Assembly (NCBI GenBank): GCA_038918905.1
Contig: JBCKZS010000010.1
Span: 638-64,637 of the forward strand
Origin: Vicinamibacterales bacterium
Lineage (GTDB): Bacteria; Acidobacteriota; Vicinamibacteria; Vicinamibacterales; SCN-69-37
Length of the DNA stretch: 64,000 nt
Direction of reading: 5' to 3'
Of the stretch, positions 39,863 through 61,919 are shown one piece after another; the stretch's first letter is position 1, and every line of letters begins with the position of its first letter. A program made the position numbers and the translations under genes. The notes below the pieces were generated by a model. The model saw only the letters and a list, made by a program, of their open reading frames with translations. It was not told the DNA's origin and did not search any database.

Positions 39863-42061
<2,199 letters not shown>

Positions 42062-42088
42062 CCGGCACGCCCGCGCACCGAACGTCCA

Positions 42089-42121
42089 CGCCGGTCAGGG
42101 TCCCCCTGGCCGGCGTTTTCT
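42089..42121 (+). terminator. intrinsic terminator of pnp
   Basis: cgccggtcaggg-tcc-ccctggccggcg (12-bp stem with one T:G position) followed by ttttct. Confidence 0.6.
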
Positions 42122-42327
42122 GTACCTGATTCGATCAACAGGCCGTTGTCGACATCGGGCTCCAACACGGGTCGGAATGTCGGAGCGTCGGACGGGTCGG
42201 TCGTCAGCGGGCACACGACGATCGAGTCGGTGGCGCCAAACAGGTCGTCCTGAACAATCACTGCGGGGCGCGGCTTGCCGGCGTAAGCGGAGCCGCCCGC
42301 AACCGTCCACACCTCGCCGCGGTTCAC
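42122..42327 (-). pseudogene. 3'-truncated MazF/PemK-family toxin gene
   Basis: (GTG)NRGEVWTVAGGSAYAGKPRPAVIVQDDLF...IVVCPLTT...FRPVLEP..DNGL. Homology stops at about aa 68, exactly at the pnp terminator. Confidence 0.55.
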
Positions 42328-42495
42328 TCTGCGTCCCAGGCCGCGATCGCGTCGACAAACGCCTGGTCGTCACCGGCATGCGGGCTAAGGTGCAGGACCA
42401 CCGCCACGCACCCGGGCAGGTCGGGCACGCTGGCGCCGTAGCTGGTGGAGCCTTGCTCGATGAGCTGGTGTTCAGAGAAGTTCGTGCCCGACGGA

Positions 42496-42759
42496 TCACG
42501 GCTTCCGGGTATCGGACTCCGTCTCGGCGTTGAGGTATCGAAAGACCCGATTGAGGCGATGACCCTCGACGGTCACGCGGTGGCCCACGAGTCCCTCGCC
42601 GGCCGGATCCGCATACGGGTTCGACCCGATGCGCTGGAGAATCAGTTCCTCGCCATCATCGGTGGTCAGCACCTGGGCGGTGTACGCCCCGCTGGTCCCC
42701 CGGCGCACGAATTGACTCGACACCAGGCCGTTGAGTCGCTCAGGACGCTGATCGCTCAT
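42496..42759 (-). CDS. hypothetical 87-aa protein
   Basis: ORF from the internal ATG (MSDQRPERLNGLV...). Same strand as, and 107 nt downstream of, the C25-like gene. No motif recognised. Confidence 0.35.
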   Translation of the reverse strand: MSDQRPERLNGLVSSQFVRRGTSGAYTAQVLTTDDGEELILQRIGSNPYADPAGEGLVGHRVTVEGHRLNRVFRYLNAETESDTRKP

Positions 42760-42866
42760 GGCAGCCCCCTCCCCTGCGTCCCAGTCAGCGCAGGTCGCCG
42801 TCTCCGGAACGCACAACCCAAGACTAGCCGGAAAGCGCCGGATTCGGCCACGGCCCCGCGCCTTCA

Positions 42867-44528
42867 TCAGGAAGAAACAACCGCACGTTGATTCATCACC
42901 CGGCCCGATTCGTCAGCCTGGACCGTCACCATTCCCACGCGGCGCAGACCACCGTTGCCGAGCGGCACGATCCAGCAGTACTGAAACGTGCCGTCCTCCG
43001 CCACGACCTCGGCTTCCGCCGTGGCACCACCGGGCAACGAAGCGAGCGCGAGGCCCGCGAACGCGGGCACGACTGCGGATTGAGTCAAACGCTCGGCCAT
43101 CGTGGGCGCGCTCGCGATGTCGGCGGCCTTGGCCTTCTTGAAGCGCGCGAGCAGGACGCGCGCCACCTCCGTGACCTCCGTGGGCAGCGGGTCGGCTGCG
43201 CGCAGAGCCTGCCGATCCGGGAGGCCCTCGCGAAGGATCCGGCCAAGGTTGAAGCGCATCCTCCGCCGCATGCGTCTCTGCGAGGTGTCGGCCGTCACCG
43301 CAGACAGGGTGGTGGCCACCGGCCCGGTCGAGGCGGGCTTGGGTCCGGCTTTGGCCGTCGAAGGCAGCACCGGGTGAATCGACGGATCGCCAAGCAGCAC
43401 GAACTGCAACAGCGTCTTTTCGTCAGCGCGGTCAGGACGCAGGCCTTGCTGCTGCAGCCAGCGCAGCAGATCCTGTTTGGCTTCGAGCGCCGCGCGGCCC
43501 AGTGAGGCGCCCGAGGTCGCGTGCTGCAGGAACGACGTCGCCACCCAGTCGGCGCACAGCATCGTGTCCTCGCCCACCCACGCGAGGGTCGTCGCGCCGA
43601 GGAACCCGTGTGCGCCCTGCCTCAGGTAGACGCTTGGGATCGGGGGTTGTCCGGGCTGCAGTGCCGCCGGATGATTCGGATCGAACACCTTCGCCCCATA
43701 ACAGCACATCGCGCCCACGACCACGCCAGGCGTGATTCGCCCGTCGATGGCGGCAGAGCTGAGCACGACCGGCGACCCACCGGTGCCCTCTCCCGCAAAC
43801 TCCGTGCTCAAGTCATTCCCGTGGCACTTGAACAGATGGCGCAGACTCTTGTGCCGTGCCCTGAGGGCGGTGGCCTTGCCATCCGTGGGTGGACTGACGA
43901 GCAAGTCCGCGAGCGGTGCGCCAAGTTGACGCATGCACTCCAGGCCACTCGGTCGCCAGAGGGCGCAGCACACCGAGAGTCCGGTCTTCCGGTACGTCGC
44001 GGCCGGCTGGCTCACCCACCTCGTCGCGTGTTTCAGATAGTCGATGAGCCAGGAGGGATCGTGGCTGCCGGGCAGGTCAGGAATGCGGCCCACGACGCGG
44101 TCTGGCACGAGGTAGGTCGATCGCTTTGCCAGGTTGAACGACGACGTACTGGCGTACGGATTGTCGGTGGGCACTTCGTCATCGTTGTCCCCGCCGATCG
44201 TGGTGCTGAACGACGGGTTCGGCGTCATGAAGTAGGGCACCACGTCATCGGCGCCCAGGATGACGATGTAGTCGGGCGCGGTGGCGGCCACCAGCGCGTC
44301 GAGCACCTCCTTGACCTTAACGGCGGTCACCGCCCCGGTCAGAGGCGCGACGCCGTAGGCCGCCACCGCCTGCGGGTCATCGATGTTCACATGAATCGTG
44401 CGGAACCCGCGGGCGGCGTCAGCCTTGATCCAGGCGCGGATGGCGGTCTCGATGCGCGCGAGGGCCGTCGCGGAGTACTTCCGCTTGAGGGCGCCTCGCA
44501 CCGTGATGCTCAGCTTCGTGGAGGTCAC
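42867..44528 (-). CDS. cytoplasmic clan-CD cysteine peptidase-like protein (gingipain/C25-like fold) with unassigned ~150-aa C-terminal domain
   Basis: No signal peptide. PDYIVILGADDVVPY, VPTDNPYA, VVGRIPDLPG, candidate His FKCHGND, candidate Cys VGAMCCYGA, LLGDPSIHPV (C25-style order). Confidence 0.55.
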   Translation of the reverse strand: MTSTKLSITVRGALKRKYSATALARIETAIRAWIKADAARGFRTIHVNIDDPQAVAAYGVAPLTGAVTAVKVKEVLDALVAATAPDYIVILGADDVVPYFMTPNPSFSTTIGGDNDDEVPTDNPYASTSSFNLAKRSTYLVPDRVVGRIPDLPGSHDPSWLIDYLKHATRWVSQPAATYRKTGLSVCCALWRPSGLECMRQLGAPLADLLVSPPTDGKATALRARHKSLRHLFKCHGNDLSTEFAGEGTGGSPVVLSSAAIDGRITPGVVVGAMCCYGAKVFDPNHPAALQPGQPPIPSVYLRQGAHGFLGATTLAWVGEDTMLCADWVATSFLQHATSGASLGRAALEAKQDLLRWLQQQGLRPDRADEKTLLQFVLLGDPSIHPVLPSTAKAGPKPASTGPVATTLSAVTADTSQRRMRRRMRFNLGRILREGLPDRQALRAADPLPTEVTEVARVLLARFKKAKAADIASAPTMAERLTQSAVVPAFAGLALASLPGGATAEAEVVAEDGTFQYCWIVPLGNGGLRRVGMVTVQADESGRVMNQRAVVSS

Positions 44529-44536
44529 GGCGCACC

Positions 44537-45460
44537 TTATGGCAGCTTGCCGAGGGCCGTGTTGACGCGATCGGCCACGGCCTTGAATCCCGGCCCGGTG
44601 GGATGCAGTTCATTCGCCCACGACTTCCGGTACTTCTTGCCGGCGACTTCGTTCGACAGCGTGCCGCGCAGGTCGATGTAGTGCAGGTGTTTGAGTCCGA
44701 GGCCGCCGGCGATGCGCGCCAGTTGCTCGTTGAACCGATCAATCAACTCGCTCATGAGACCGGTCGTCTCTTCGAGGTCCGAGAATCCCTTGCGGCGGAA
44801 CCCCGGTTCGAGCCACGGTCCGGGCAGGAACCAGAAGCCGCCGAGGAACCCGCGGCCGTCCGGCACCGGCCTGTCGTAGCCGTGGATGAGGATCGGAAGT
44901 TTCGCGCCGAAGAACGTCTCGGACAGGACCGTGACGGCGGACGCAAGGCTGACGATGGCCGCGGCCAGGCGTTCCTCGAAGAGGCCGGAGACCACACGTG
45001 CGTTGAGGGCCGGCAAGCCCGAGCGTTTGTGGTTGAGGAGCATCGAAAACTCCTCGCCGGCAATGTCGTTGCCGCCGCCCGAGAGCAGAAACGCGCGCGG
45101 CGTCTTTCCGGCCTGACTCAGTTTGCGGAGTTCGCGTTCGAGATTCGACAACTGCGCGTAGTCGTACGCCATCTCCTCGACGCGATCGCCCTTGTGGGCG
45201 GACGAGACGACTTCCCACCTGTGCTGGTCCTCGAGTTCCGCGAGGACGTCTGACATCGGGTAGTCGAACCATGAGTCGCCTTCCGCGACCAGGATGCCTG
45301 GGCTGGGCTTCTTCGGCCCTGCGGCCTTGAGTCGTTGTTGCCGCCGCGCGAGTACCGCTTTCGCGGCGTCGGTGCCGGCCTGCTGTGCCGCCGCCCATTC
45401 GGCGGGAGTCAACACTCGTCGCGATAGTTTCTTCTTCGCCTTCACTTGCGTTTTCGCCAT
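44537..45460 (-). CDS. cytoplasmic SGNH-hydrolase-like protein with Lys-rich N-terminal extension
   Basis: GGAGG RBS before the ATG at 45460. Blocks VAEGDSWFDYP (GDS), LLSGGGNDI (GxND), WANELHPT (block V-like). 8-nt gap to the C25-like gene. Confidence 0.6.
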   Translation of the reverse strand: MAKTQVKAKKKLSRRVLTPAEWAAAQQAGTDAAKAVLARRQQRLKAAGPKKPSPGILVAEGDSWFDYPMSDVLAELEDQHRWEVVSSAHKGDRVEEMAYDYAQLSNLERELRKLSQAGKTPRAFLLSGGGNDIAGEEFSMLLNHKRSGLPALNARVVSGLFEERLAAAIVSLASAVTVLSETFFGAKLPILIHGYDRPVPDGRGFLGGFWFLPGPWLEPGFRRKGFSDLEETTGLMSELIDRFNEQLARIAGGLGLKHLHYIDLRGTLSNEVAGKKYRKSWANELHPTGPGFKAVADRVNTALGKLP

Positions 45461-45856
45461 CACGGCCTCCTGGCTGGTCGGGAATCGGTCCCACTCTGCC
45501 AATAGGGACGGCCCCCGAAGCGACTTTCCTTCAACACTCCGAAGCCCCCAGTAGTCGCGGTCGATGGTAGGCGGGCCCCGACACTCTGTCAACGGAAATG
45601 TCGCCTGAAATTTCGCCGACCATGGTGGCGAAAGCCGCGGCGCCCTCGCCTCGGACCTCGACGGGCAGCCGCACGCGTTCGTCCTGGCGTGCGTGATTGA
45701 ACCCGAGCCGGACTTTGGTGTTGACCAGATGCGCGAGACGCCGAACTGCACCATCCGGTTCGCGATGGATTTACTCGCAGGGCCGTACGTGCGGCAGGCG
45801 TAGGAGACGAGCAGATCCTGGAGTGGATGAACGGCAAGGGCTTGTAGGAGCGATGT

Positions 45857-46747
45857 ATGCAATGGACGATCGGCGACAAGGTCAAACACGTGTCCATCCC
45901 TGATTGGGGCGTTGGAGAGGTCATCACCGTCGCCGACCACCACAACGTGGAGGTGCGCTTTCGAACGGGCGGATTAAGAACCACAAAGGCCGATCGGCTG
46001 GTTCGGCTCACCGAGGCAGAACTTGCCGAGCTCCTGCCGAAGACCCGCAGGTCGACCTCAAGGCCACGGCGCGCGCACACTCCGATCGCGACCTTCAAGG
46101 CCGCATTCGTGGCAATGTTCCCCGAGGGGTTCCGCGACCAGAAATACCTGAAACAGGAGCGGGACTACAAGGTGAAAGCCAGCGAGCTCCTGCAGGAACA
46201 GCTCGCACCCAAGGCGCTTTCTGCCCTTGTCAAGAAAGGCGACTACGCCGAGGTGTGCAAGAGGGCCAGGCGATTGGTCAGCGCCACCAACCTGGTCTTC
46301 AAGAACGAGGCCATGGACCTCAAAGACGGCCTTCAGAGTCCGGCGAACCAGGAACTCTTCGCTACGGCCCTGCTCTCGCAGCTGTACGGGCAGGGTCCCT
46401 TCGAGGCGCGAATGGAAGGGTTCATGAACGCCTTGTCGAACATTGACGCGGCGAAATGGACCATCGCGACGTACTTCTCGTTCCTTGCCTTCCCGGAGGA
46501 GCACCTCTTCATCAAGCCCACGCCGACCAAGCGCATCGCTGACGCCTGTTTGATTGAGCTCAACTACCGTCCGGAGTTGAACTGGCTCACCTACGCGACA
46601 TCATTGCGCCTGGCAGCCGAGCTGATGGACCAACTCGCGGACCTCCAGCCAAGGGATATGATCGACATTCAGTCGTTCATGTGGAAGGTGGGCCGGGGAT
46701 CGAATAACAAAGGACCGGGAGGTGTACCGTGGCCCGTCGTTGTCTGA
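45857..46747 (+). CDS. hypothetical protein: small SH3/Tudor-like N-terminal module (DUF3553-like) + helical domain
   Basis: IGDKVKHVSIPDWGVGEVITV...VEVRF resembles the GD.V.H..FG.G.V motif. The rest is unassigned. Divergent from the SGNH gene. Confidence 0.5.
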   Translation: MQWTIGDKVKHVSIPDWGVGEVITVADHHNVEVRFRTGGLRTTKADRLVRLTEAELAELLPKTRRSTSRPRRAHTPIATFKAAFVAMFPEGFRDQKYLKQERDYKVKASELLQEQLAPKALSALVKKGDYAEVCKRARRLVSATNLVFKNEAMDLKDGLQSPANQELFATALLSQLYGQGPFEARMEGFMNALSNIDAAKWTIATYFSFLAFPEEHLFIKPTPTKRIADACLIELNYRPELNWLTYATSLRLAAELMDQLADLQPRDMIDIQSFMWKVGRGSNNKGPGGVPWPVVV

Positions 46748-46924: not shown

Positions 46925-48598
46925 TCAACTCTGCCTGAAGAGCCGCATCCCTGCCTCTTTCTCGAATGCCGTACAAATCAGCTTGAGCCGTTCCTGCCGG
47001 AACTTCTTGAATGCACCAACGACTCCGCGTTCCCAGACGCCAGCGTCCTGCCCAGCTGGAAGCAGATGGCTCCTCATGACCTGGAGAAAGCGCTGGCGGC
47101 CCTCGTCACGATATTCGGCTAGATACTTGCGCGGCAGGCGCTTGCCGATCTTGAGATTGTCTCGCGCCACCAAGAAGCAGATATTGCACAGGCTGTTGTA
47201 GACCTTCGCCGACACATGGTGCCGGAGCTGTCCTTGAGGAAAGATGTGATGCCGATGTTTTCGATTTGAGTGGCTGATGATGGCCTTGTCCAATGGGATT
47301 GGCTCGCCATCCTCGAGATACCGAGGAGCGCGAGCCGCCAGCAGACAGAAGAATGCCCGCGCCCTGGCGCTGCGTGAAGCATAGTCGGCCGACTGAATAT
47401 CCAGTACCGGGTCGAGACGGTCACGAAAGACGAAGCGAACCCTTGAACCCCGTGCAAGGGACGCGAAGAACTTCGCGTCGCCCACAATGTTGCGGTGATA
47501 ACCCCGGCCTGTATACCGCTGCCCCACACCCGTTGCCCAAAACCACTTGCGGATTTCCGCGGCCTGGTACCGATCGGGCGGACCATGGTGGTGAAAGAAA
47601 AATACCGCAAGGGTCGCCAGCATGTTTGCGGACGGCAGGTACGACTCGTCGTGGACGGGGAAGCGATTGTGCAAGTGGTCCACGGCAGCGCAGAACGCGT
47701 TCTGGTACTTGTGCCAGAGGTTCTGGAATCTCTTCTTTTCCGACTCGTCTTTCTGAATGAGTTTTGACCAGCGCCGAGCCATCGCCTCCAGCTTCGGTGG
47801 ATCTCCATCAAGGGCCTGGCTCTCAGCGACCAGGTTGAAGCCCATTAGGATCGGATCGATCGCACTCAAGGCAAGAACAGTATCCCGGATCTTCTGACGA
47901 AGTTCTTGCGCCATCGACCGCACGTCAAGTTCTCCCATTAATGCGATGGCACGGTCCGCCGACGTAATTCGCATGCCTTGCGAATTGACCCGAATGAACA
48001 CCTCGCCGATCTCATCCAACGTCGCCGACCGTACGGTCACAACCGGAATGGGATACGTCAAGAAGCGCTGACGGCACTTGCCCACTCTCATCAAGAACCA
48101 GTCCGGCTTACTGGACATTCTCCTCTTCCAGTCAGGCGCCAAGATATCTGGAAGCGGAACGAACTCACGATCAACGGGCTTGCGGTAAACGATGCGATCG
48201 TGGTCGTCACCCTCCGGATCGGGAGTGACAACAAAACACAGCCGCCTGAAGTCAATCTCCCGTCCTGCGTCGTTCTTCCGAACCTGACCTTCAAACGCCT
48301 GGTAGATCACCGATAGTCGTTGCTGGCCATCGATGACAAACCACACCACGCGATTCCCGCTATCAAACGATGGGAGCACGTCTGCGGACTGTCGAATCAG
48401 GTTGGCTGACCGGCGATCCATCTCCCAGAGGAACAGCGACCCAATCGGCATGGCTCGGTAGATACTGTCCAGAAGCTTCGCCGCGCGACGGGCATCCCAG
48501 ACGAAGTTGCGCTGTAATTTTGGCACCGCGAATTTTCGTGCCTGCAAATCCGAGCGCAGCTTCCTGATGGACACTGTAGCGAGCTTGGGAGGCTTCAT
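46925..48598 (-). CDS. GmrSD-like type IV (modification-dependent) restriction enzyme, DUF262 + DUF1524
   Basis: FAVPKLQRNFVW..., VIDGQQRLSVIYQ (DGQQR). C-terminal HNH-like RKHRHHIFPQGQL. Start at MKPPKLATV. Confidence 0.8.
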   Translation of the reverse strand: MKPPKLATVSIRKLRSDLQARKFAVPKLQRNFVWDARRAAKLLDSIYRAMPIGSLFLWEMDRRSANLIRQSADVLPSFDSGNRVVWFVIDGQQRLSVIYQAFEGQVRKNDAGREIDFRRLCFVVTPDPEGDDHDRIVYRKPVDREFVPLPDILAPDWKRRMSSKPDWFLMRVGKCRQRFLTYPIPVVTVRSATLDEIGEVFIRVNSQGMRITSADRAIALMGELDVRSMAQELRQKIRDTVLALSAIDPILMGFNLVAESQALDGDPPKLEAMARRWSKLIQKDESEKKRFQNLWHKYQNAFCAAVDHLHNRFPVHDESYLPSANMLATLAVFFFHHHGPPDRYQAAEIRKWFWATGVGQRYTGRGYHRNIVGDAKFFASLARGSRVRFVFRDRLDPVLDIQSADYASRSARARAFFCLLAARAPRYLEDGEPIPLDKAIISHSNRKHRHHIFPQGQLRHHVSAKVYNSLCNICFLVARDNLKIGKRLPRKYLAEYRDEGRQRFLQVMRSHLLPAGQDAGVWERGVVGAFKKFRQERLKLICTAFEKEAGMRLFRQS

Positions 48599-48861
48599 TT
48601 TTTTTGTAACTCCCCATCTTGACTCAGGTCGCGAACGCCAGATTCTGGCATGACCACGGCCGAAGCGCCAGACTTTGGGCTGATCGAGACGGTCGTCACA
48701 TTCCCGATCACGCGTCGGCCGAGGCGGGTCCAGAGCGGTTGAATCCAGGGCGGGTCGCGAGAGTCCTTGATCTGGGCTTGAGGATCGAGGTCGTTTAGAA
48801 AAGGAGACGCGGCGCCATCGCCTGTCTTCCACGTCGTGCCCTGCCTCACGCCGTCGCCCAT
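48595..48861 (-). CDS. hypothetical 88-aa ORF bridging hsdR and the GmrSD-like gene
   Basis: Overlaps the hsdR stop by 16 nt, and its TGA overlaps the GmrSD ATG (ATGA). No motif recognised. Confidence 0.35.
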
Positions 48862-51800
48862 TCTCCGGACAGCAGCGCCGCCTGTTCCAACACTGTCTGC
48901 GTCGCACGCTCCTGCTTGTCTGGCGGATATCCGTGTTTGCGCAGGATGCGCTTGACCAGCACCCGTAACTGCGCGCGCACGTTCTCACGCATGGTCCAAT
49001 CGATCGTTACGTTGTTGCGGACGGTCTGGACGAGCTCCCTCGCAATCGCGCGGAGCGTCTCGTCGCCCAGCACCCTCACCGCGCTGTCGTTCGTCTCCAG
49101 CGCGTCATAGAAGGCAAGCTCATCCTCCGACAACCCCAGCACCCGGCCGCGCGCGTTCGCCTCGCGCATGTCCTTCGCGAGCTGGATCAACTCCTCGATG
49201 ACCTGCGCCGCCTCGATGGCCCGATTCTGGTAGCGGCGGATCGTCTGCTCCAACATTTCTGCAAAGGACCGCGCCTGCACGACGTTCTTCCTTCGACGGG
49301 TGCTGAGCTCCCCTTTGAGCAGCTTCTGCAACAGCTCCACGGCGAGGTTGCGCTGCGGCATGCCGCGCACCTCGGCCAGGAATTCGTCCGAGAGAATCGA
49401 AATATCGGGCTTCGCCAGTCCCGCCGCCGCGAAGATGTCCACCACGCCTTCCGGCGCCACCGCGCGGGAGATGATCTGGCGAACCGCGTGGTCCAGCTCT
49501 TCCTCCGGCCGCGCGTCGCCGGGCGCGCGCTTGGCGAGCACGGCCTGCACCGCCTGAAAAAACGCCACGTCGTCGCGAATGCGCAGCGCCTCGGCGTGCG
49601 GCACCGCCAGCGCGAATGCCTGCGACAGCTCCCGCACGACCCGCAGGCACCGATCCTTGCCGTCCTCTTGCTGCAGGATGTGCTCCTGCGCGGCGGGCAA
49701 CAGGCCCAGCCGCTCCCGCGGCGTACCGCTGGTCCACCTGGTCCAGTCGATGCCGTGAAAGAGGCCGCAGCAGATTTCGTACTTCTCCAGCATCACGGCC
49801 ACGGCCTCGTCCTGATCGAACGCCGTGCGGCCCCGGCCGCCGCTCTCGGTGTAGGTCGCGAGCGCCTGCTTCAGCTCCTGGGCAAGCCCGAGATAGTCCA
49901 CCACCAACCCGCCGGGCTTGTCCTTGAACACGCGGTTCACCCGCGCTATGGCCTGCATCAGCCCATGACCGCGCATCGGCTTGTCCGCATACATCGTGTG
50001 GAGGCTTGGAGCGTCGAAGCCGGTGAGCCACATGTCGCGCACCAGCACGATCGTGAGCGGGTCCCTGGCATCGCGGAAACGGTTGGCCAGCGCCTCTCGC
50101 CGCGGCTTGTTGCGGATATGTTGCTGCCAGTCCGGCGGATCGGACGCCGACCCGGTCATCACAACCTTGATCGCGCCCTGCTCATCATCGTCGTGCGCCC
50201 AGGCCGGGCGCAACTTCACCAACTCGCCGTACAACTCCACGCAGATGCGCCGGCTCATGCACACCACCATGGCCTTGCCGTCCATCGCCGCAAGCCGGTT
50301 TTCGAAGTGCTCAACGATGTCACGGGCGATGATCTTCAAGCGCTTCTCAGCGCCGACGATAGCCTCGAGCTGCGCCCACCTGCTCTTGAGCTTCTCTTTG
50401 CGATCGACCTCCTCGCCTTCGGTCGCCTCCTCAAAGTCCGGGTCGATCTTCGGCCGCTCCGCTTCGTCAAGCGCAAGCTTGGCGAGGCGGCTCTCGTAGT
50501 AGATCGGCACCGTGGCGCCGTCCTGCACGGCGCGCTGGATGTCGTAGACACTGATGTAGTCGCCGAACACCGCGCGTGTATTGGCGTCCGCAAGCTCGAT
50601 CGGGGTTCCGGTGAAGCCAATGAACGAGGCGTGCGGCAGTGCATCGCGCATGTGCCGCGCGAAGCCATCGATGAAGTCGTACTGGCTGCGGTGCGCTTCG
50701 TCGGCAATCACCACGATGTTGCGGCGAGCGGAGAGCGTCGGATGCCGGTCGCCCCGCTCTTCCGGGAAGAACTTGTGGATGGTGGTGAACACCACGCCGC
50801 CTGCGGCGACCGAGAGCAATTCCCGCAGGTGCGCCCGGCTCTCTGCCTGCACCGGCGGCTGGCGCAACAGATCCTTGCAGCGGGAGAACGTCGCAAAGAG
50901 CTGATCGTCGAGGTCGTTTCGGTCGGTGAGCAGGACGAGGGTCGGATTCTCCATCGCCGGTTCACGGATGATGCGGCCCGCATAAAAGGCCATCGTCAGG
51001 CTCTTGCCCGACCCCTGCGTGTGCCAGACCACGCCGACGCGCCGGTCGCCCGACTGCCCGCCCGGCTTCTGGCCCGACTCGTATCGCCCGAGCGCGTCCG
51101 CGACGCGATCGATTGTCGTGTCGACCTGGTGCAGTTCAGCCGCCCGCAGCGTCTCGGTCACGGCCACCTGCACGGCGTGGAACTGGTGGTACCCGGCCAT
51201 CTTCTTCGTGATGCGCCCGCCACCATCATCTTCGAACACGAGGAAATCGCGCACCATGTCGAGGAAGCGGCGCGGTTCGAAGAGGCCCGTCGTGACCACT
51301 TGCAGTTCCGGCAGGTAGGTGTCCGCCAGGCGCTCGCCTGCGATCGTGCGCCAGGGCTTGAACCACTCGCGACCAGCCGTGAGTGTGCCGACGCGGGCTT
51401 CCACACCGTCAGAGATGACGAGCAGCTCGTTCGTGGCGAAGAGCGACGGAATCTCGGCCTTGTAGGTCTGGAGCTGCTGGAAGGCCGACCAGATCGTGGC
51501 GTTCTCGGCCGCTGCGTTCTTCAGCTCCAGCACCGCCAGCGGCAGGCCGTTCACGAAGAGCACCACGTCCGGCCGGCGGGTGTGTTTGTTCTCCACCACC
51601 GTGAACTGATTGACCGCGAGGCAGTCGTTGTTCGCGGAGTCTTCGAAGTCGATCACCCGGACTGGCGTCCCCTTGATTTCGTCGTTCGCGGCGCGATACT
51701 CGACCTCCACTCCGTCCACGAGCAGGCGGTGAACGCCCCGGTTGCGCCCGACGAGGTCTGCCCCTTCGGGCCGCGTGAGCTTGCGGAACGCGTCCTCCAG

Positions 51801-52001
51801 CGCTTCGGCGGGAAGGTCCCGGTTCAGCCGCGCCAGCGCATCCCGCAGCCGCCGCTCCAGCACGACCTGGCCGTAATCGGTGCGCTCCGCGGCAAACTCG
51901 CCGGGCGCGATGTCCGCGCCGTTGACCACACTCCAGCCGATGGCTTCAAGCCAGTCGAGGGCGGCCTGTTCGACGACGGATTCGGTGAAGCTCGCGCTCA
52001 T
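48846..52001 (-). CDS. hsdR: type I restriction enzyme R subunit
   Basis: [18 protein letters not shown]... N-terminus. Helicase motifs [29 protein letters not shown]. 1051 aa. Confidence 0.95.
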
Positions 52002-53317
52002 GTCGTTTCCCACAGCGCGCGCAGCGGCACGGCGTGCAGGCCGTCGCCGAAGCTGATGGTCGCGCTTCCATCGTAAAGCACGACGCCTGCGGCGAAGCGC
52101 TTACCCGCGGCGTCCCGCAGCTTGCGAAGTCCCCGGAGGTCACCTTCCGTCACGGTCGCGGCTGCCTTCACCTCGACGCCGGCGACGGCCGCATGGCCCT
52201 GCTCCAGCACGATGTCCACCTCGAAATCGTCGCGATCCCTGAAGTGGAAGAACTCGACCGGCATCGGTCGCCAGCTTGCCTGGCGGCGGAGCTCCTGGAG
52301 CACGAACGATTCCAGCATCGGCCCGAGCGCCGCGCGGTCCTCGTCGAGCGCCGCCGCGCCGATCCCGAGCAGGGAGCAGGCCACGCCCGTGTCGCCCATG
52401 TGGAGCTTGGGGCGCTTGACCATCCGGCTCAGGCGGTTCGTGTGCCACGCGGGCAATCGCTCGAGCAGGAACACCCGCTCCAGCAGCGTGACGTAGTCGT
52501 GGATCGTCTGGCGCGTCAGCTCGAAGGGGGCCGCAAGATCCGCCACGTTGAGGAGTGTCGCGGTATGGCTCGCCGCCAGGGCGAGCAGCTTGGGCAGCGC
52601 GTCGAGCGAGTGTATGCGCGCCAGGTCGCGGACGTCGCGCTGGATCTGCGTTTCGATGTAATCGCGGTACCACGCGCGCCGGCGCGCCGCGCTCCGGCGC
52701 GCGAGCGCCGCGGGGTATCCGCCTGCGACGATGCGCTCGGCGAGGCCGACGCCGAGGCGTTCGCTGATGCCGGTTCTGAAGCGGGCGGCAAACAAGGCGT
52801 CGATGAATCGCGGCCGGGTGCTCTCGATCTCGCATTGCGCCAGCGGATGGAGCCGCAGCAGGCCCATCCGCCCCGCCAGGGACTCGGCGAGGCGGGGAAC
52901 GAGGAGCACGTTGGCGGATCCCGTCAGGATGAACCTGCCCGCGGTTCTGCGCTGGTCGATAGCGGCCTTGAGCGAGGTAAAGATCTCCGGGATCCGCTGG
53001 ACGTCGTCCAGGATGGTCCTCGCCGGGAGGCGGGACACGAAGCCGACCGGGTCGTTTCGCGCGGCAGCGAGCACGGCCTCGTCGTCGAACGAGACGTACC
53101 GGTACCCGCGGGGCTCGCCGACGGCGCGAGCGAGCGTGGTTTTGCCGCTCTGCCGCGGGCCGTGGATCAGGACGGCGGGCGTGTCGCCGAGCGCCTCGCG
53201 CAGGCGCGGCGCGAGGTGGCGGGGATAGGGTTTGGCGATCCGGGACACGACCGATAGTAGCTGCGCCGGACGGCTGAATGCAAGAATAGCCGTCGGCTGA
53301 ACGCTATTTTCGGCCAC
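51998..53317 (-). CDS. AAA-family ATPase with DUF4143-type C-terminal domain
   Basis: [17 protein letters not shown] (Walker A). Its stop overlaps the hsdR ATG (ATGA). The real start is more likely the GTG at 53248 ([12 protein letters not shown]...), because 53271..53357 is a repeat array. Confidence 0.8.
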
Positions 53318-53357
53318 GGCTGATCGCTATTTTACGCATCGGCCGAACGTTACTGTC
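53271..53357. repeat. 23-bp tandem repeat, 3 full + 1 partial unit
   Basis: cggctgaatgcaagaatagccgt / cggctgaacgctattttcggcca / cggctgatcgctattttacgcat / cggccgaacgttac... It abuts the hsdR stub breakpoint. Confidence 0.8.
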
Positions 53358-53450
53358 CTCGCCGATATCCGCGCCGTTGACCACCCAGCCGATGCCATCC
53401 AGCCAGGCGAGGGCGGCCTGTTCAACGACGGATTCAGTGAAGGGAGTCAT
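53358..53450 (-). pseudogene. hsdR 5' stub (31 codons)
   Basis: [31 protein letters not shown] compared with intact hsd[36 protein letters not shown]. Homology ends after GGCGAG. Confidence 0.75.
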
Positions 53451-53585
53451 GACGATGCCCGGCCGATTATCCAGGAATGAGCAGGAATAAGCAGGAAAGA
53501 GCAGGCGAAAGGGCAGGAATAGGAAGGAATAAAAGCCAGAATAGGAGTTCAATTGGAGTCGAATTGGAGTTCCCCCGGCTGGCGA
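53451..53585 (-). promoter_or_regulatory. A/T- and pyrimidine-rich leader with phased short repeats (function unknown)
   Basis: Minus strand: AACTCCAATTCGACTCCAATTGAACTCC, then TTTCCTGCTT|ATTCCTGCTC|ATTCCTGGAT (10-nt phase). It is one of the very few non-coding gaps over 100 bp between hsdM and the GmrSD-like gene. Confidence 0.4.
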
Positions 53586-54350
53586 TCACGCCACCAGCTC
53601 CTCACGCACGCTCTCGCGCTGGCTCCACGGAACCGGGCGCACTTCGTAACTCCGCAGCGCGTCGATTACCGCTTGCGAGGCCGTCTGCTCCGAGTCATTC
53701 AGTAGCGCATAGGCGCGCGAATCCGGTGAGCGCACTTCCTTCGTGTCGATCCACGAGAGAACCACCGCCTGCGCGGTGTCGCGATTCGGCCGGTTGATGG
53801 TCTGGATGATGCGCTCCGGCTGCTGCCGCGATTTGGGGATCACGAAGTCAAACAGGTGGTCATACCCGGTCTTGCCCGTGAACTTGACCTTCGGTGTGTA
53901 TCGCACGTCGTGCACATCGAGCCAGGCAACGACATCCTCGTAAAAGAGGCTCGCCACTATCGGCACCGCCAGATAGAACATGTCGTTCACCGCCAGCATG
54001 GCTTGCACGAGGTTGTGCTTGCGCAGCGCGAAGTTGTCGGGCGACGCGTGGACCTGAAGCGCTTTACCGTCCATCTGAACGCCAAAGCCATTCAGCGTCA
54101 TCTTCAGCAGGTCCTGGCGCTTGTGGCTCTCCAACTTGCAGCCGCTCTGTTCCAGATCGCCGATCGTGTGCCCGTCGTCGGTCAGGATGAAGCCGCCGTT
54201 GGCCTTCTTCGCATAAATCTGCAAGTAGTCGTTGTGCCGATCGAGATAGGGCGTGGTGATCTCGATCCATTGATCGATCTGGCGAAGGACGGACTTGTCC
54301 TTGAGCCAGGCATGGTAGGCGTCCATTAAACGCTGGATGTCGTGAATCAT
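53586..54350 (-). CDS. DUF1828/DUF1829-like protein
   Basis: [19 protein letters not shown]...[18 protein letters not shown]...[16 protein letters not shown]... fits my recollection of DUF1828+DUF1829. ATGA overlap with the upstream ORF. Confidence 0.65.
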
Positions 54351-54796
54351 GTGAACAGCCCCCGGTCGATGTGCGGCGGTTGCGTGATATTGCAGAACCG
54401 CAGGAAGTCTTCCAGCGTCGCCCACACATCGCCGGTGTCCTGGAAACGGTCAGCCGGAACCGGCAGCGCCCACTTGTCGCCGTAGCCCTCGCGGTACAGG
54501 TGCAGATGGGGCGCCGGAATTTCTTCGTCGTCCGGGTTACGATGGGGAGCGCCGCCCAGATCGAGCCGGACAAGGACGACGACCTGCTGAGCCCGGTTCT
54601 GCATGGTGACCTTGACCAAATCGATGCGGCCGCGGCTCAGGTCGAGCAGGAATTGCTCCCGCTTGTCGGCGGACTGAAGCGGCACCACGATCGATTGCCC
54701 GCCCATCGGGAAGTCGATCCGATCGTCCGTGGTTCGGTGCTTCTCCATGGCGATCAAGGCATCCGCCTCGGCCTGCGTGAGATTGATGTCGGCCAT
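54347..54796 (-). CDS. hypothetical 149-aa protein, partner of the DUF1828/1829 gene
   Basis: [20 protein letters not shown]...[28 protein letters not shown]... A widespread uncharacterised family by recollection; not verified. Confidence 0.55.
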
Positions 54797-54841
54797 CAGA
54801 CCGCCCCCACGAACAAACGCCCGGCGCCATGTATCCACCGT

Positions 54842-54945
54842 CTGCCGGGTGCAAGCACCGCACCATGGCGGACGGACCAGCCGACGCTCTTCAGCCAGGC
54901 GAGGCCGGCCTGTTCGACCGTGGATTCGGTGAAGGTGGAGTTCAT
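54842..54945 (-). pseudogene. hsdR 5' stub (34 codons)
   Basis: [34 protein letters not shown]. Its ATG overlaps the HerA stop (ATGA). Homology ends after CCCGGCAG. Confidence 0.75.
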
Positions 54946-56699
54946 CGCTTCTGGTAGCGCCAGCGATTCGCGACGGCTTTCAGTTGGTCCTCGGACATCG
55001 CATCGCTCTGCCATCCCCTGTCGAAGTCGATGTCGTTCGACTTCGGTAGCTGGTCGTCCGCGAGATCTCGGATCATGATGCGTGAGGGAAGCATGGCTGC
55101 CTGACCGACGAAGATGGCCTCCTGTCGCCGCAGTCCAGACAGCATCTTCGTCAGTCCCGCCATCGAATCTGGAAGCACACCACGCACATGCTCCCTGTCC
55201 GCCTCATTCGTTATGCGGAGCACAATCCAAGAGTTGCACTGCGAGAGCACGGTCGACTCCACTTCGCTTGGCCGCTGCGATACAAGGAACAACCCGATGC
55301 CGTACTTACGGCCTTCCTTCGCGATCCGTCTGATGGCGCTTTGGGCTGCCCCATACTGCGCCTCACCGCTGTTGGGGACGTAGCGATGGGCCTCCTCGCA
55401 TACGAGCACAACCGGACTGACCTCTCGCTCAGCGACGGTCTGCCAGACCTTCAAAGAGAACAACGTTCGCGCGATCGCTGCGCTTGCCGTACCGGCCACC
55501 TCGTTAGGCACCCCGGACAGGTCGACGATTCTCACCGCATCACCGGCGCCTAGTATCTGAGCCAGCACGGACGGCATCGGGTCACCTGCTCCATCCCAGG
55601 CTTTCATCATGAACGAGAGTCGCTCGTCCTTTATCAACGAGTCGAGCTTTCTCAGAACCTTGTTGTAGTCCTCATGATCCTTCTTGTTCTTGTTGGTTGG
55701 TCTCTGTGAGTTGATTGCCCCTACGAGACCAGTCTCGTACTTCGCTCCGTTCAGCTCGCCGAACTCGTCCAATCCCGCCGGGTCACCAAGAAGGTAGGGG
55801 ATAGGCGCATCGACTGTGAGCTTGCTTGAGTCAAGCTGGAGAACGCTCGTCGCAGCGCTCGAACGTGCCGCGAGCAGTGCATTCTTGACAATGTTCGCCT
55901 GCGACGTAGCGGCGTACTCGGTCTTTCCGATTAAGAGACCAATGGTCTCATCAAGGTCCAAGAGCCAATAGGGCAGCGACAGTGTCCCCTCATCGGTGGA
56001 TAACCTCTTGTGCTCCTTGAATGCCTTGCCGTACTCGTTATGCGGATCGAGGATGACGATCTGCGGTTTCCAGTTGTCGTACTTGGCATCCTTGCCTCGT
56101 TGAATCACGCTGTGGATGATCGCTGCGACCGCGGCGGACTTGCCAGTACCGGTCGAGCCGAGTATCGCGGTGTGCTTGCCAAGCAGCTCATTCAAGTCCG
56201 CATAGCAGGGCGCTCCGCCCGCCCCCACATGCTCTCCGAGCTGGATGACTGCGCCTTTGAAGTGCCCGTAGATAAACCGCAGCTCTGACTTCGGCGTGAG
56301 ATAGACCGTTTGCTGGGGCAAGGGGTAGGTCGCTACGCCGCGTTCGAACTGCAGCTCCCCCTCGCCAGCGTCATCACGTGTCCATTCTCCCTCTCCGAAC
56401 AGATCAGCCTCAACGACCCTCTCATCCGCTGCGGCCCGAGGTGCCACCCCGCGCTCGGCCTCGTACTCCGCCTTCATTCGAAGCCGCCCGACAAGCGCGT
56501 AGATCAGGCGGCGGCCAAAGTGAATCCGCACGATCGATCCGAACTGCCCGATGGGATATGTCTCCCCCGCATAGACACGAGACAATTCCGTCAGGCCGGG
56601 GTCCAGCTCAGCAATGATGTGCGAGCCGTCCACCTCGATGATCTTGCCGATGGCCAGGTTCTCGATCGGATCGCCGGGATTGCGCTTTTCGGTATTCAT
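54942..56699 (-). CDS. HerA-like hexameric ATPase/helicase of a SIR2-HerA defence pair
   Basis: Walker A GSTGTGKS, Walker [12 protein letters not shown], 585 aa. ATGA overlap with the SIR2 gene. Confidence 0.85.
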
Positions 56700-57840
56700 C
56701 GCTCACCCCCGAGCAACCGCGTGATGTTTTCGAACTTCCACCACAGGAGATCCGTCGTCGACTTCTCCGAGGAATCACCATGAAAGAAGCCTCGGTTCGC
56801 GAAAATCAACACCTGTTCTCGGATCCTCTCGTCCTCGGTCCACGTCTTCAACTGGCCCGTCGGTTCGCTCTCGCTCGTGAACGCCACGACGGTCAAGTTA
56901 CCCGCGGATTCGCGGAGCCCCCTGTCCACCTCGATATTGATATGTGCGTCGGCGAAGCCGTATCCGCATATGACAAGGACGCGCTGGAAACCGTGGTTTG
57001 GCCGCATGACGCCCCGCGCTCGGTCCGCCAGTTGGGCGAATGGGTCCAACTGCGTTTCGCGATACTTCGTTGAAGCCGGCCAAATGAGAATCCGGCGGTC
57101 GTTCGCGTCTGTCACTTGGAGACTCGATGCAAATCGCCGGGGCAAGGGATCGCTGGGGAGCTCGCACCAGTTGATTGATCCGTGAAGCTTCAGGACGCGG
57201 GCGGCCAAACCGTCACGATCGAAAGTCTTAGGGTTCCACCAGCCCGTCACCCCTCCGTCGATCCCATCCGAGAACGGAACCCGCTCTAGTGCTAGAGCGT
57301 CCTCGATCGCGGTGTCGTAGTTGAGCACGAGGTAGTCCACAACCTGACCGGGTGCCGTTCTGCCCTCGCGCAAGGGGCGATGCACTGCGACGACAAAGGC
57401 TCGATGGATTGCAATCGAGACCTTCTTCTCGATGACGCTGGCAATGGCCCGCTTGATTTGATCGGCGGCACCTCGCAGTTGCGCGACGGTGTAACCCGTC
57501 GCGCCCAATGTGATGTCCTTCTGCGTCGCGCCACGGTCAACTCTGCGCTCCGCGATAGCAAGGAGGTCGATCAGTTCGCTTAGGTAATCCTCAATGTGTG
57601 CATTCGCGGCGCCGGCGAAGAGATTCTTGACAGCGGTCAGGATGGCTTTGCTCGTGCCATCGAGTTCACTGCTACCAAGAACCTCGGCCGTGAGTTCACC
57701 AGTCAGGGGGAGGCCCGCGCACTTGCTGCAACCCGCCCCGATCAAGAACGCCCGCCCACTCTGAACGACAAGTTCTTCGAACTTCGCGACCGCTTCGGAG
57801 AAAGGCTTCTCGCGGAGTACGGATAGATCGTCGGGCGTTG

Positions 57841-57844
<4 letters not shown>
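56696..57844 (-). CDS. SIR2-family (NADase-type) protein of a SIR2-HerA defence pair
   Basis: FLIGAGCSKCAGLP (GAGxS NAD loop), LKLHGSINW (catalytic His). GGAGG RBS. Its ATG overlaps the hsdS stop (ATGA). Confidence 0.85.
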
Positions 57845-59092
<1,248 letters not shown>

Positions 59093-59103
<11 letters not shown>

Positions 59104-59163
59104 ACCCACGCTCCTTCACGTTCGCGGCGACGGCACCGCCCGGCTTCGTAGCCTGCGCCCTGC
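59093..59163 (-). pseudogene. hsdM 3' stub
   Basis: ...AQATKPGGAVAANVKERGYGG* compared with the hsdM end ...[21 protein letters not shown]. About three quarters of 70 nt match by eye. Both ends use GGGTATGGC to start the next gene. Confidence 0.65.
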
Positions 59164-60299
59164 TCACGGCTTCCTCCGGCGAGCGCGTGGCGTCTCTTGC
59201 GATTCTCCGGAAAGCTCTGCCTCGATCTCCTCCACCGTCGGCAGGATCCCCTCCAGTTCCTTCGGCAGCGACTTGACGAGGCTCGTCTCCCACTGTGACA
59301 CGCCGATCGGCTTCTTGAGGTCGCGCAGCGCGTACTCCACCACGACCGCGTTCTTCGAGCGGCAGAGCAGCAGCCCGATGGTGGGCTTGTCGTCCGGATG
59401 GCGCAGCAGGTCGTCGGCCGCCGAGAGATAGAGATTCAGCTTCCCCACGAATGCCGGGGCGAACGCCACGGCCTTCAGCTCGACCACCACGTAGCAGCGC
59501 AGCTTCAAGTGGTAGAAGAGCAGGGTCCACCAGGAAGTCCTGGTCGCCGACCTCCAGCAGCACCTGCCTGCCCACGAAGGCGAAGCCGCTGCCCAGTTCC
59601 AGCAGAAAGCGCTGCACGTGATCGACGAGCGCCTCCTCCACCTCGCGCTCGCGGCGCGGGTCGGCGGTACCGAGGAAGTCGAACAGATAGGGGTCCTTGA
59701 AGACCTGGGCAGCGAGGTCGGACTCGCCGGGCGGCAGCGCCGCCGCGAAGTTGGTCAGCGCCTTGCCCTGGCGGTCGCGGGCGCGGCCCTGGATCTGGAG
59801 CACAAGGATGTTGTGCGACCAGCCCCGCTCGATGGCCTGGCGCGCGTACCAGAGGCGCTCGGCGGGGTCGTCGAGCTTCTCCAGCAGCGCGATGTGGTGG
59901 TACCAGGGCAATCGTGCAAGAGGCTCTTGCACGATTGCCCGCTCCGGCCAGGCCGCGGCGAACGCGCGCATGTACTTGAGGTTGCGCGGCGAGAAACCCT
60001 TCATGTCGGGGAACGCCTCGCGCAGGTCCGCGGCCAGGCGGTCGATCACCTTCGCGCCCCAGCCCGCGCTCTCCTGCCGCGCCAGGATCATCCGTCCGAT
60101 GTCCCAGTAGAGCAGGACCATCGCCGCGTTGGCGGACAGGACGACGCGCAGGCGCTCCTGCTGGATGCGCGACTTGATCGCGGCCAACGCGTCGGCGTAG
60201 TCCTGCGGGAGGGCAGTCCTGGCCGGCGCGACCGGAAAGCGCGCTTCGGGCCGGGCGCGGCCCCGCGCAAGCCGGATGTCGGCTTCCGGGCGGGAGCGC

Positions 60300-60310
<11 letters not shown>
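59164..60310 (-). pseudogene. YhcG/DUF1016-type PD-(D/E)XK nuclease, +1 frameshift
   Basis: N-part ...GSGFAFVGRQVLLEVGDQDFLVD and C-part LLFYHLKLRCYVVVELKAVAF...LSAADDLLRHPDDKPTIGLLLC are in different frames. There is an extra C in GACCCTG (59521..59527). Confidence 0.8.

Positions 60311-61919
<1,609 letters not shown>

Follow-up and report, generated by a model that had tools for sequence, protein, structure and literature searches.

This report concerns three adjacent genes on the minus strand of a 64,000 nt stretch of Vicinamibacterales DNA (assembly GCA_038918905.1, contig JBCKZS010000010.1; "the window" below means the whole of that stretch), which encode, in order, an SGNH/GDSL-type hydrolase, a protease resembling the gingipains of peptidase family C25, and a small protein with a predicted OB-like fold (Table 1). 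Comparison with related loci suggests that the protease and the small protein form the core of the locus and that the hydrolase sits beside them in an exchangeable slot. A first-pass annotation, made from the sequence alone, had singled out the hydrolase and protease genes as a candidate defence system, and the gene coordinates, the 8 nt gap and the motifs that it quoted are all present on the minus strand. The three genes are read as one operon because they are co-directional, only 8 nt separate the stop of the hydrolase gene from the start of the protease gene, a promoter-like site lies upstream, and GGAGG boxes are found 5 nt before the ATG of the hydrolase gene and 8 nt upstream of the ATG at 42759 in the small open reading frame (ORF). 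The promoter-like site is a pattern match only, the consensus scan having found one where 0.3 were expected. Read from an earlier ATG, one that overlaps the stop of the protease gene (TGATG), the small ORF would give 123 aa; this is disfavoured, as a product of 87 aa agrees with the GGAGG box, with the lengths of the homologues and with the start called in a sister strain. The first 57 residues of each of the three gene products contain no hydrophobic segment, Kyte-Doolittle(12) values peaking at 0.36-0.82, which bears out the earlier statement that signal peptides are lacking.

The match of the protease to the Pfam family Peptidase_C25 (PF01364) scores 44.3 bits, where the cut-off is 23, and falls into two stretches, of which the best covers profile positions 294-372. 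A search for homologues found 292, and most of the 120 that were listed span the entire query at 41-59% identity; nearly all of these 120 carry PF01364 and almost none has been given a name beyond "hypothetical protein". His236 (in IKCHG), Cys275 and Cys276 (in AMCCYG) are invariant in 28 aligned sequences, either of the two cysteines being a candidate nucleophile. An AlphaFold2 (AF2) model of the protein (pLDDT 86, pTM 0.88) has gingipain K as its top PDB match in Foldseek (4rbm and 6i9a, E 6e-13 and 2e-12, probability 1.0), followed by Csx29/TPR-CHAT, separase and SAVED-CHAT, and the modelled structure has the caspase-haemoglobinase alpha/beta fold; the clan-CD fold and catalytic dyad suspected from the motifs are thus upheld. 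In the model the first strand of the fold is already made up by residues 3-9, and therefore the protease would have neither a pro-domain nor a signal peptide. Beyond the protease domain a disordered linker (residues 393-412 of the model) precedes a C-terminal alpha/beta domain that is conserved, opens with a long helix bearing the invariant residues R418, R421 and R422, and has no Pfam match. The possibility that the small protein is a homologue of this domain was rejected (hhalign probability <1%).

Compared with the Porphyromonas gingivalis gingipains K and R (MEROPS C25, clan CD), the protease shares the fold, the ordered His-Gly ... Cys dyad and the Pfam C25 match, whereas identity is only 11-14% and a sequence-level profile search of the PDB gave no match. 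It has no signal peptide, N-terminal pro-domain or adhesin domains, and no C-terminal domain for type IX secretion (T9SS) was detected, the sole NCBIfam match being PorU-related at E 0.027. In contrast to the gingipains it carries the unrelated C-terminal domain of ~150 aa, is predicted to be cytoplasmic and is paired with an OB-fold protein. It is therefore a C25-like protease of clan CD but, without the secretion features of gingipains, not a gingipain.

The partner that goes with this protease most constantly is the small protein. Eighty C25 loci were fetched from species-representative genomes, of which 32 are close relatives of the locus in the window, and a small ORF lies directly downstream of the protease gene in 27 of the 32; of the five exceptions one is cut by the end of its contig and another has a disrupted protease gene. 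Furthermore the small domain is fused to the C-terminus of the protease in three independent proteins (L095, 608 aa; P0406, 561 aa; P0319). Because of these 27 loci and three fusions the 87 aa protein, and not the SGNH gene, appears to be the obligate partner of the protease, which reverses the first-pass treatment of the 87 aa ORF as an optional element. The 27 loci span at least eight phyla, and carriers of the two genes are found in Acidobacteriota, Gemmatimonadota, Verrucomicrobiota, Planctomycetota, Beta- and Gammaproteobacteria (Pseudomonadota), Myxococcota and Bacteroidota, and include the cultured strain Methylibium rhizosphaerae C1-9; the pair is also present on rhizobial conjugative plasmids.

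A profile search identified 317 representative relatives of the small protein, mostly stand-alone proteins of 75-110 aa. The AF2 model of the window copy (pLDDT 82) has the order b1-b2-b3-helix-b4-b5, which is that of an OB fold, and on the basis of the model the protein may be described as OB-like. Pfam family DUF5818, itself without known function, is matched at E <= 0.01 by 17 of 60 relatives (best 1.2e-5); the window protein scores 16.3 bits (E 0.0071) as 87 aa and 13.9 bits (E 0.041) as the 123 aa ORF, so that it fails, like the two relatives whose scores were listed, to reach the 27 bits of the gathering score and would be at most a distant DUF5818 relative. A loop with the pattern [KR]-G-[ST]-x-S-E-H is widely conserved in the small-protein family, and the window copy reads RRGTSGAY at that position. 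A structural search of the model detected no similarity to inhibitors of the staphostatin/Spi type, and the small protein has no match in PADLOC.

The hydrolase has a basic, Lys/Arg-rich N-terminal tail of ~55 aa before its catalytic blocks. Ser63, Asn131 and His286 are invariant in 26 aligned sequences, in keeping with the SGNH motifs noted at first, and all 26 carry a Lys/Arg-rich tail of ~55 aa. Block V takes the variant form [ND]-E-L-H with E284 invariant, and the glycine of block II is tentatively G91. The window protein itself scores below the Pfam cut-offs, with 23.7 bits for PF13472 (cut-off 32.9, E 7e-5) and 19 bits for PF00657 (cut-off 23.6), while most of its 120 closest homologues carry precomputed matches to one or other of these families and five neighbours of C25 genes match SGNH profiles with E down to 5e-10. 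More than 3,600 matches make this a large family. A sequence-level profile search of the PDB gave no match for the hydrolase, and PADLOC gives only a spurious Cas7 match (E 0.021). The tails can be split into partner-specific subtypes, which is compatible with co-evolution of hydrolase and protease; shared ancestry could also explain them.

The first-pass annotation had expected the hydrolase and protease genes to be a conserved pair, and this is true in part. Linkage of the two is seen in at least 13 independent loci and in three gene orders: the order SGNH-C25-small is shared by the closest protease homologues (50-58% identity) and by a divergent clade, and C25-small-SGNH is found in L017 and L029. 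The SGNH gene is also the commonest non-syntenic neighbour of the C25 and small genes. It is not their defining partner, being present in only a minority of the loci, and from these comparisons it would seem to be a facultative, exchangeable third gene.

A second line of evidence comes from the hydrolase side. Eighty metagenome loci anchored on SGNH homologues were surveyed, 59 of them assessable (at least 900 bp of flank), and in 23 of the 59 a gene for a signal-peptide-free protease lies near the SGNH gene, belonging to the C25-like (7 loci), S8 (6), trypsin-like (6), M43 (3) or C11 (1) families. The distance is 15-532 bp in 20 of these loci, 808 bp in L119 and 933 bp in L114, and in L089 the protease lies ~2 kb away on the opposite strand. 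Queries for the non-C25 proteases gave 17 matches in 16 SGNH loci (0.39 Mb, ~44 per Mb), whereas the 1.08 Mb of the control set yielded five loci (4.6 per Mb), a roughly tenfold lower density. Neither the window proteins nor the C25, S8, trypsin-like, C11 and M43 partners have a signal peptide or transmembrane segment; M16, M10 and M28 peptidases beside SGNH genes have signal peptides or a lipobox, and their proximity was for this reason discounted as a probable coincidence.

Members of this SGNH subfamily, recognisable by the same hallmark motifs, are also fused to the C-terminus of trypsin-like proteases in two plasmid-encoded proteins without signal peptides, one from Geminocystis and one from Mesorhizobium. 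The Mesorhizobium fusion has in addition a middle domain judged by eye to be EEP (Exo_endo_phos-like), and the Geminocystis fusion gene is followed by genes for GH19, N-acetylmuramoyl-L-alanine amidase and murein endopeptidase. One plasmid SGNH match falls inside an amidase-domain protein. That the SGNH family occurs beside many unrelated proteases, or is fused to them, points to an effector module under protease control that has not been described, possibly one for defence, and the idea of a protease-activated esterase, put forward at the outset, gains support by a route that had not been anticipated. The earlier interpretation is nevertheless reframed, since the constant partner of the protease is the 87 aa protein and the hydrolase is one of several third genes.

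Some variants of the SGNH module have further components. In L104, L105 and L112 an S8 protease gene comes after the SGNH gene, and behind it lies an ORF of 101 aa, which resembles a subtilisin (I9) propeptide by eye only and has no Pfam match. Upstream of the SGNH-S8 genes L104 and L105 have a Ser/Thr kinase-TPR protein, and L112 has an AAA_22/STAND-like ATPase bearing a PG_binding domain. AAA/STAND-type ATPases are found upstream in some variants, namely AAA_22/AAA_16 in L112 and, in L125, an AAA_16 match that does not reach the Pfam cut-off.

The C25-OB pair, for its part, is found with other third genes. In L001 it lies beside a SIR2 protein related to the defence NADases DSR2, ThsA and KomC (PDB matches, E ~1e-8), for which BLASTP against the SIR2_2 protein of the window gave no significant match. 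A deaminase-like amidohydrolase and a UDG-like gene accompany the pair in five loci, and on Bradyrhizobium plasmids it lies beside a trypsin-like protease, near AbiE. Such modularity of the neighbouring genes is typical of conflict systems. Also on Bradyrhizobium and Rhizobium plasmids, genes for ferritin-like, two hypothetical and radical SAM proteins adjoin the C25-like gene (L181 9115-13089, L182 1-4972), a cluster which may be due to synteny of the plasmids or may form another module linked to the pair. Ser/Thr kinase-TPR genes occur near several loci, and such genes are very abundant in Acidobacteriota.

More distant C25-like clades sit behind NACHT-TPR STAND proteins of ~2,240 aa in Chloroflexota. 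In L036 (234-9515), and in similar loci among L033-L071, the STAND gene is followed directly by one for a protein of ~845 aa that combines TPR and a C25-like protease, and these operons are an NLR-like system whose protease belongs to the superfamily of the window protease. Stand-alone C25-like domains of ~365 aa were seen in Terriglobia (L039, L068, L073, L079, L080, L051); in the first five the upstream flanking protein has 235-990 aa and the downstream one 710-830 aa, and L051 has only an upstream ORF of 377 aa. Four of the flanking proteins from L039 and L068 were scanned, three having no Pfam match and one an Ig-like domain (Big_3_5).

In the window the operon lies between the block infB-rbfA-truB-rpsO-pnp and a defence island, as had been described, and the adjoining island holds GmrSD, HsdR, AAA_14-DUF4143, DUF1828/1829, HerA with SIR2, HsdS and DUF1016 genes (Table 1). 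The HerA-like ATPase and SIR2_2 protein together look like a SIR2-HerA system. The GmrSD gene lies in a low-GC patch (0.58-0.60 against ~0.67), is absent from an otherwise collinear contig of a sister strain (L183) and looks like a recent insertion. In that sister strain (GCA_038918835.1) pnp is likewise flanked by the operon although the GmrSD gene is missing, and the operon therefore appears to have been stable while the adjacent island varied. The divergent gene between the operon and the GmrSD gene had been suggested as a possible component of the system; this was dropped, for no homologue was found in 160 fetched C25 or SGNH loci and it is kept only in the near-identical sister strain. 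On the other side of the operon is the remnant of a MazF/PemK toxin gene, whose frame then enters the 3' end and terminator of pnp and whose start is overlapped by a 34 aa ORF (42324-42428). A phage origin of the module is unsupported, as IMG/VR holds no C25 relatives and six viral contigs hold only distant SGNH relatives (27-33% identity).

Table 1. Features of the operon and its surroundings. Positions are those of the window, except for the fusion proteins in the last row, which are given by locus.
Feature	Position	Strand	Details
Promoter-like site TTGACA-17-TACCAT	45564-45592	minus	~100 nt upstream of SGNH start; consensus scan
SGNH/GDSL-type hydrolase gene	44537-45460	minus	ORF, 307 aa from ATG
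SGNH block GDSWFDYP, Ser63	45272-45274	minus	
SGNH block GGGND, Asn131	45068-45070	minus	
SGNH block NELHPT, His286	44603-44605	minus	
C25-like protease gene	42867-44528	minus	ORF, 553 aa, GTG start
Clan-CD (gingipain-like) protease domain	43359-44528	minus	residues 1-390 of 553
Candidate catalytic His236	43821-43823	minus	invariant in homologues
Candidate catalytic Cys275/Cys276	43701-43706	minus	invariant in homologues
C-terminal alpha/beta domain of protease	42870-43316	minus	residues 405-553
Small ORF	42496-42867	minus	123 aa at most; 87 aa from ATG at 42759 (42496-42759)
MazF/PemK toxin gene remnant	41962-42327	minus	profile positions 2-66 of 109, E 4e-9
Divergent 296-aa protein	45857-46747	plus	N-terminal DUF3553/Tudor-like domain; remainder without assignment
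GmrSD/DUF262-type restriction gene	46925-48988	minus	PADLOC PDC-M55C, E 1.5e-39
AAA_14-DUF4143 ATPase	51998-53317		within island 48846-60316, which also holds HsdR
DUF1828/DUF1829 protein	53586-54425		defence island
HerA-like DUF87 ATPase and SIR2_2 protein	54942-58114		defence island
HsdS	57841-59109		defence island
DUF1016/YhcG nuclease	59093-60316		defence island
Trypsin-SGNH fusion proteins	L179 1468-3456; L180 2793-5807		

Bacterial immune modules in which a protease is paired with its effector have been described, both for pro-nucleases with trypsin-like or caspase proteases (canu) (PMC12799240) and for gasdermins with proteases encoded in the same operon (bioRxiv 10.1101/2021.06.07.447441), and by analogy these would be the closest paradigm for the operon. 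As in those systems, an effector family is found beside several unrelated protease families, the proteins are cytoplasmic, the cassettes are small, modular and horizontally scattered, and some SGNH variants (L112, L125) have the upstream AAA/STAND-type ATPase. The operon differs from them in that an SGNH hydrolase would take the place of the nuclease or pore former as effector, the protease resembles gingipains and there is an additional obligatory OB partner; within protease-gated effector modules the protease family, the effector family and the obligate partner are all rated as new. For the operon itself, proteolytic activation and an anti-phage role are putative. TPR-CHAT/Csx29 (Craspase) and SAVED-CHAT are likewise signal-activated immune proteases of clan CD and match the protease model at E 5e-6 to 2e-3, but these matches are weaker than that to gingipain K and the window protease has no CRISPR or cyclic-nucleotide sensor domain. 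In staphopain-staphostatin and SpeB-Spi, too, a small, cytoplasmic, beta-rich protein is encoded directly downstream of a cysteine protease gene, though there the proteases are secreted and papain-like, whereas here the small protein is OB-like and sometimes fused to the protease. A system of this composition does not seem to have been reported, as had been said at the outset: the literature searched on phage defence and conflict systems held no description involving C25, gingipain-like proteases, DUF5818 or SGNH/GDSL proteins, and neither SGNH nor C25 is named in a survey in eLife that covers NTP-dependent conflict systems.

We tentatively read the operon as a protease-gated effector system, an interpretation that seems to us quite possible while falling short of probable, in which a cytoplasmic gingipain-like cysteine protease and a co-expressed small OB protein, probably binding the protease, form the core and an SGNH hydrolase of the esterase/lipase type is cargo in the exchangeable third-gene slot. 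The protease would be held latent, with the OB protein as lock, sensor or first substrate. Upon a trigger it would cut the co-encoded hydrolase, most likely within the Lys/Arg-rich N-terminal extension; the conserved basic tail is a candidate inhibitory segment for removal in this way, and its composition would suit the P1 specificity of a gingipain, clostripain or trypsin, which all have a preference for Arg or Lys. The esterase activity so freed may then damage membrane lipids or another ester-bearing component and arrest growth, giving a response like that of abortive infection or another conflict response. The wider proposal is that C25 and OB proteins are the core of undescribed, scattered immune or conflict systems that activate SGNH, SIR2 NADase or deaminase-like pro-effectors, and that the SGNH family is independently protease-gated and has been recruited by at least five unrelated cytoplasmic protease families; this can be entertained, but with somewhat more doubt.

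A number of observations weigh against the gated-effector interpretation. Every step of the mechanism is hypothetical: what computation shows is the modelled folds, the catalytic residues, the absence of secretion signals, the gene linkages and the fusions, whereas the binding of the OB protein, the direction of regulation, the site of cleavage, the substrate of the hydrolase and the role in defence are inferred from them. The gene calls in the fetched loci were made with heuristics of our own. Most of the loci homologous to the C25 pair have metabolic or housekeeping surroundings outside defence islands, and because of this a role in defence is plausible but unproven; few of the 106 nearest neighbours match defence models, PADLOC-DB v2 has no true match for any of the three proteins, and the association of the pair with defence islands that had been suspected turned out to be weak, even though some relatives lie beside SIR2, TIR or STAND genes or AbiE and the copy in the window abuts an island. 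An SGNH homologue is present in only 3 of the 32 close species-representative loci, so the hydrolase accompanies a minority of the pairs. The assignment of the hydrolase comes from motifs and profiles, its SGNH fold being putative, and matches of the small-protein model to OB proteins are weak and non-significant (E >= 0.02). The window copy of the small protein also deviates at the near-invariant serine of its family (GTSGAY against GTGSEH). Finally, the Geminocystis fusion has no basic linker and lies beside genes for cell-wall hydrolases, a context in which a lytic or degradative role is possible.

It could be argued that the protease and OB protein are a self-contained pair, engaged in regulated proteolysis or behaving like a toxin and antitoxin with the small protein as inhibitor, and serving housekeeping or stress, with the hydrolase and other neighbours unrelated to it or co-regulated but not its substrates. 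We regard this as rather unlikely. The pair does occur alone in most loci and in non-defence contexts, small inhibitor genes in the same operon as a cysteine protease gene are well established for staphopain-staphostatin and SpeB-Spi, and the propeptide-like ORF of the S8 variants, by its appearance, would be in keeping with such an arrangement. Against this, no non-syntenic neighbour accompanies the pair more often than the SGNH gene, the third genes at other loci are of kinds typical of immune effectors, and it is difficult to account for the independent association and fusion of the SGNH family with unrelated proteases unless they are functionally coupled. Coupling can be read from adjacency and fusion, but not its direction, so that the hydrolase might instead act on the protease or OB protein (by taking off an acyl or ester modification, for instance), or both enzymes might act on one target, with no proteolytic activation, and the absence of an obvious basic cleavable linker from the fusion proteins would agree with this. 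Such a reversal seems improbable, as the association of one SGNH family with five non-homologous protease folds is easier to understand if the hydrolase is the common substrate or effector, and as the Lys/Arg-rich tail fits the Arg/Lys specificity of gingipains, clostripain and trypsin.

There is similarly only a small likelihood that the two enzymes have a degradative or envelope-remodelling role in nutrition, lysis or predation, with non-classical export or with cell walls or lipoproteins as targets. C25 and SGNH proteins are usually secreted, the M16, M10 and M28 neighbours of some SGNH genes have a signal peptide or lipobox, and both the cell-wall genes behind the Geminocystis fusion and the plasmid match within an amidase-domain protein point the same way; yet the window proteins and the five accepted families of protease partner have no signal peptide or transmembrane segment, the N-terminus of the protease is the first strand of its fold, no T9SS domain was detected, and the SIR2 NADase and deaminase partners act on cytoplasmic metabolites. 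That the hydrolase and protease genes came together by chance at the edge of the island, as the absence of an SGNH gene from 29 of the 32 loci might be taken to mean, is highly improbable given their 8 nt spacing, the same order in homologues at 50-58% identity, the linkage in at least 13 independent loci and three orders, and the retention of the operon in the sister strain despite its different island.

Gingipain-like proteases of family C25 have been known almost only as secreted virulence factors. If the gated-effector interpretation is correct, they would join the intracellular clan-CD proteases that govern cell-fate decisions in bacteria, and SGNH hydrolases would be a new class of proteolytically gated effector, the lipase/esterase counterpart of the gasdermins and gated nucleases. 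The small protein with the OB fold would gain a definition as obligate partner of a protease, its role as lock, sensor or substrate being directly testable, and experiments have a starting point in the cultured strains that carry the module, for example Methylibium rhizosphaerae C1-9 and, on plasmids, Bradyrhizobium septentrionale and Rhizobium.

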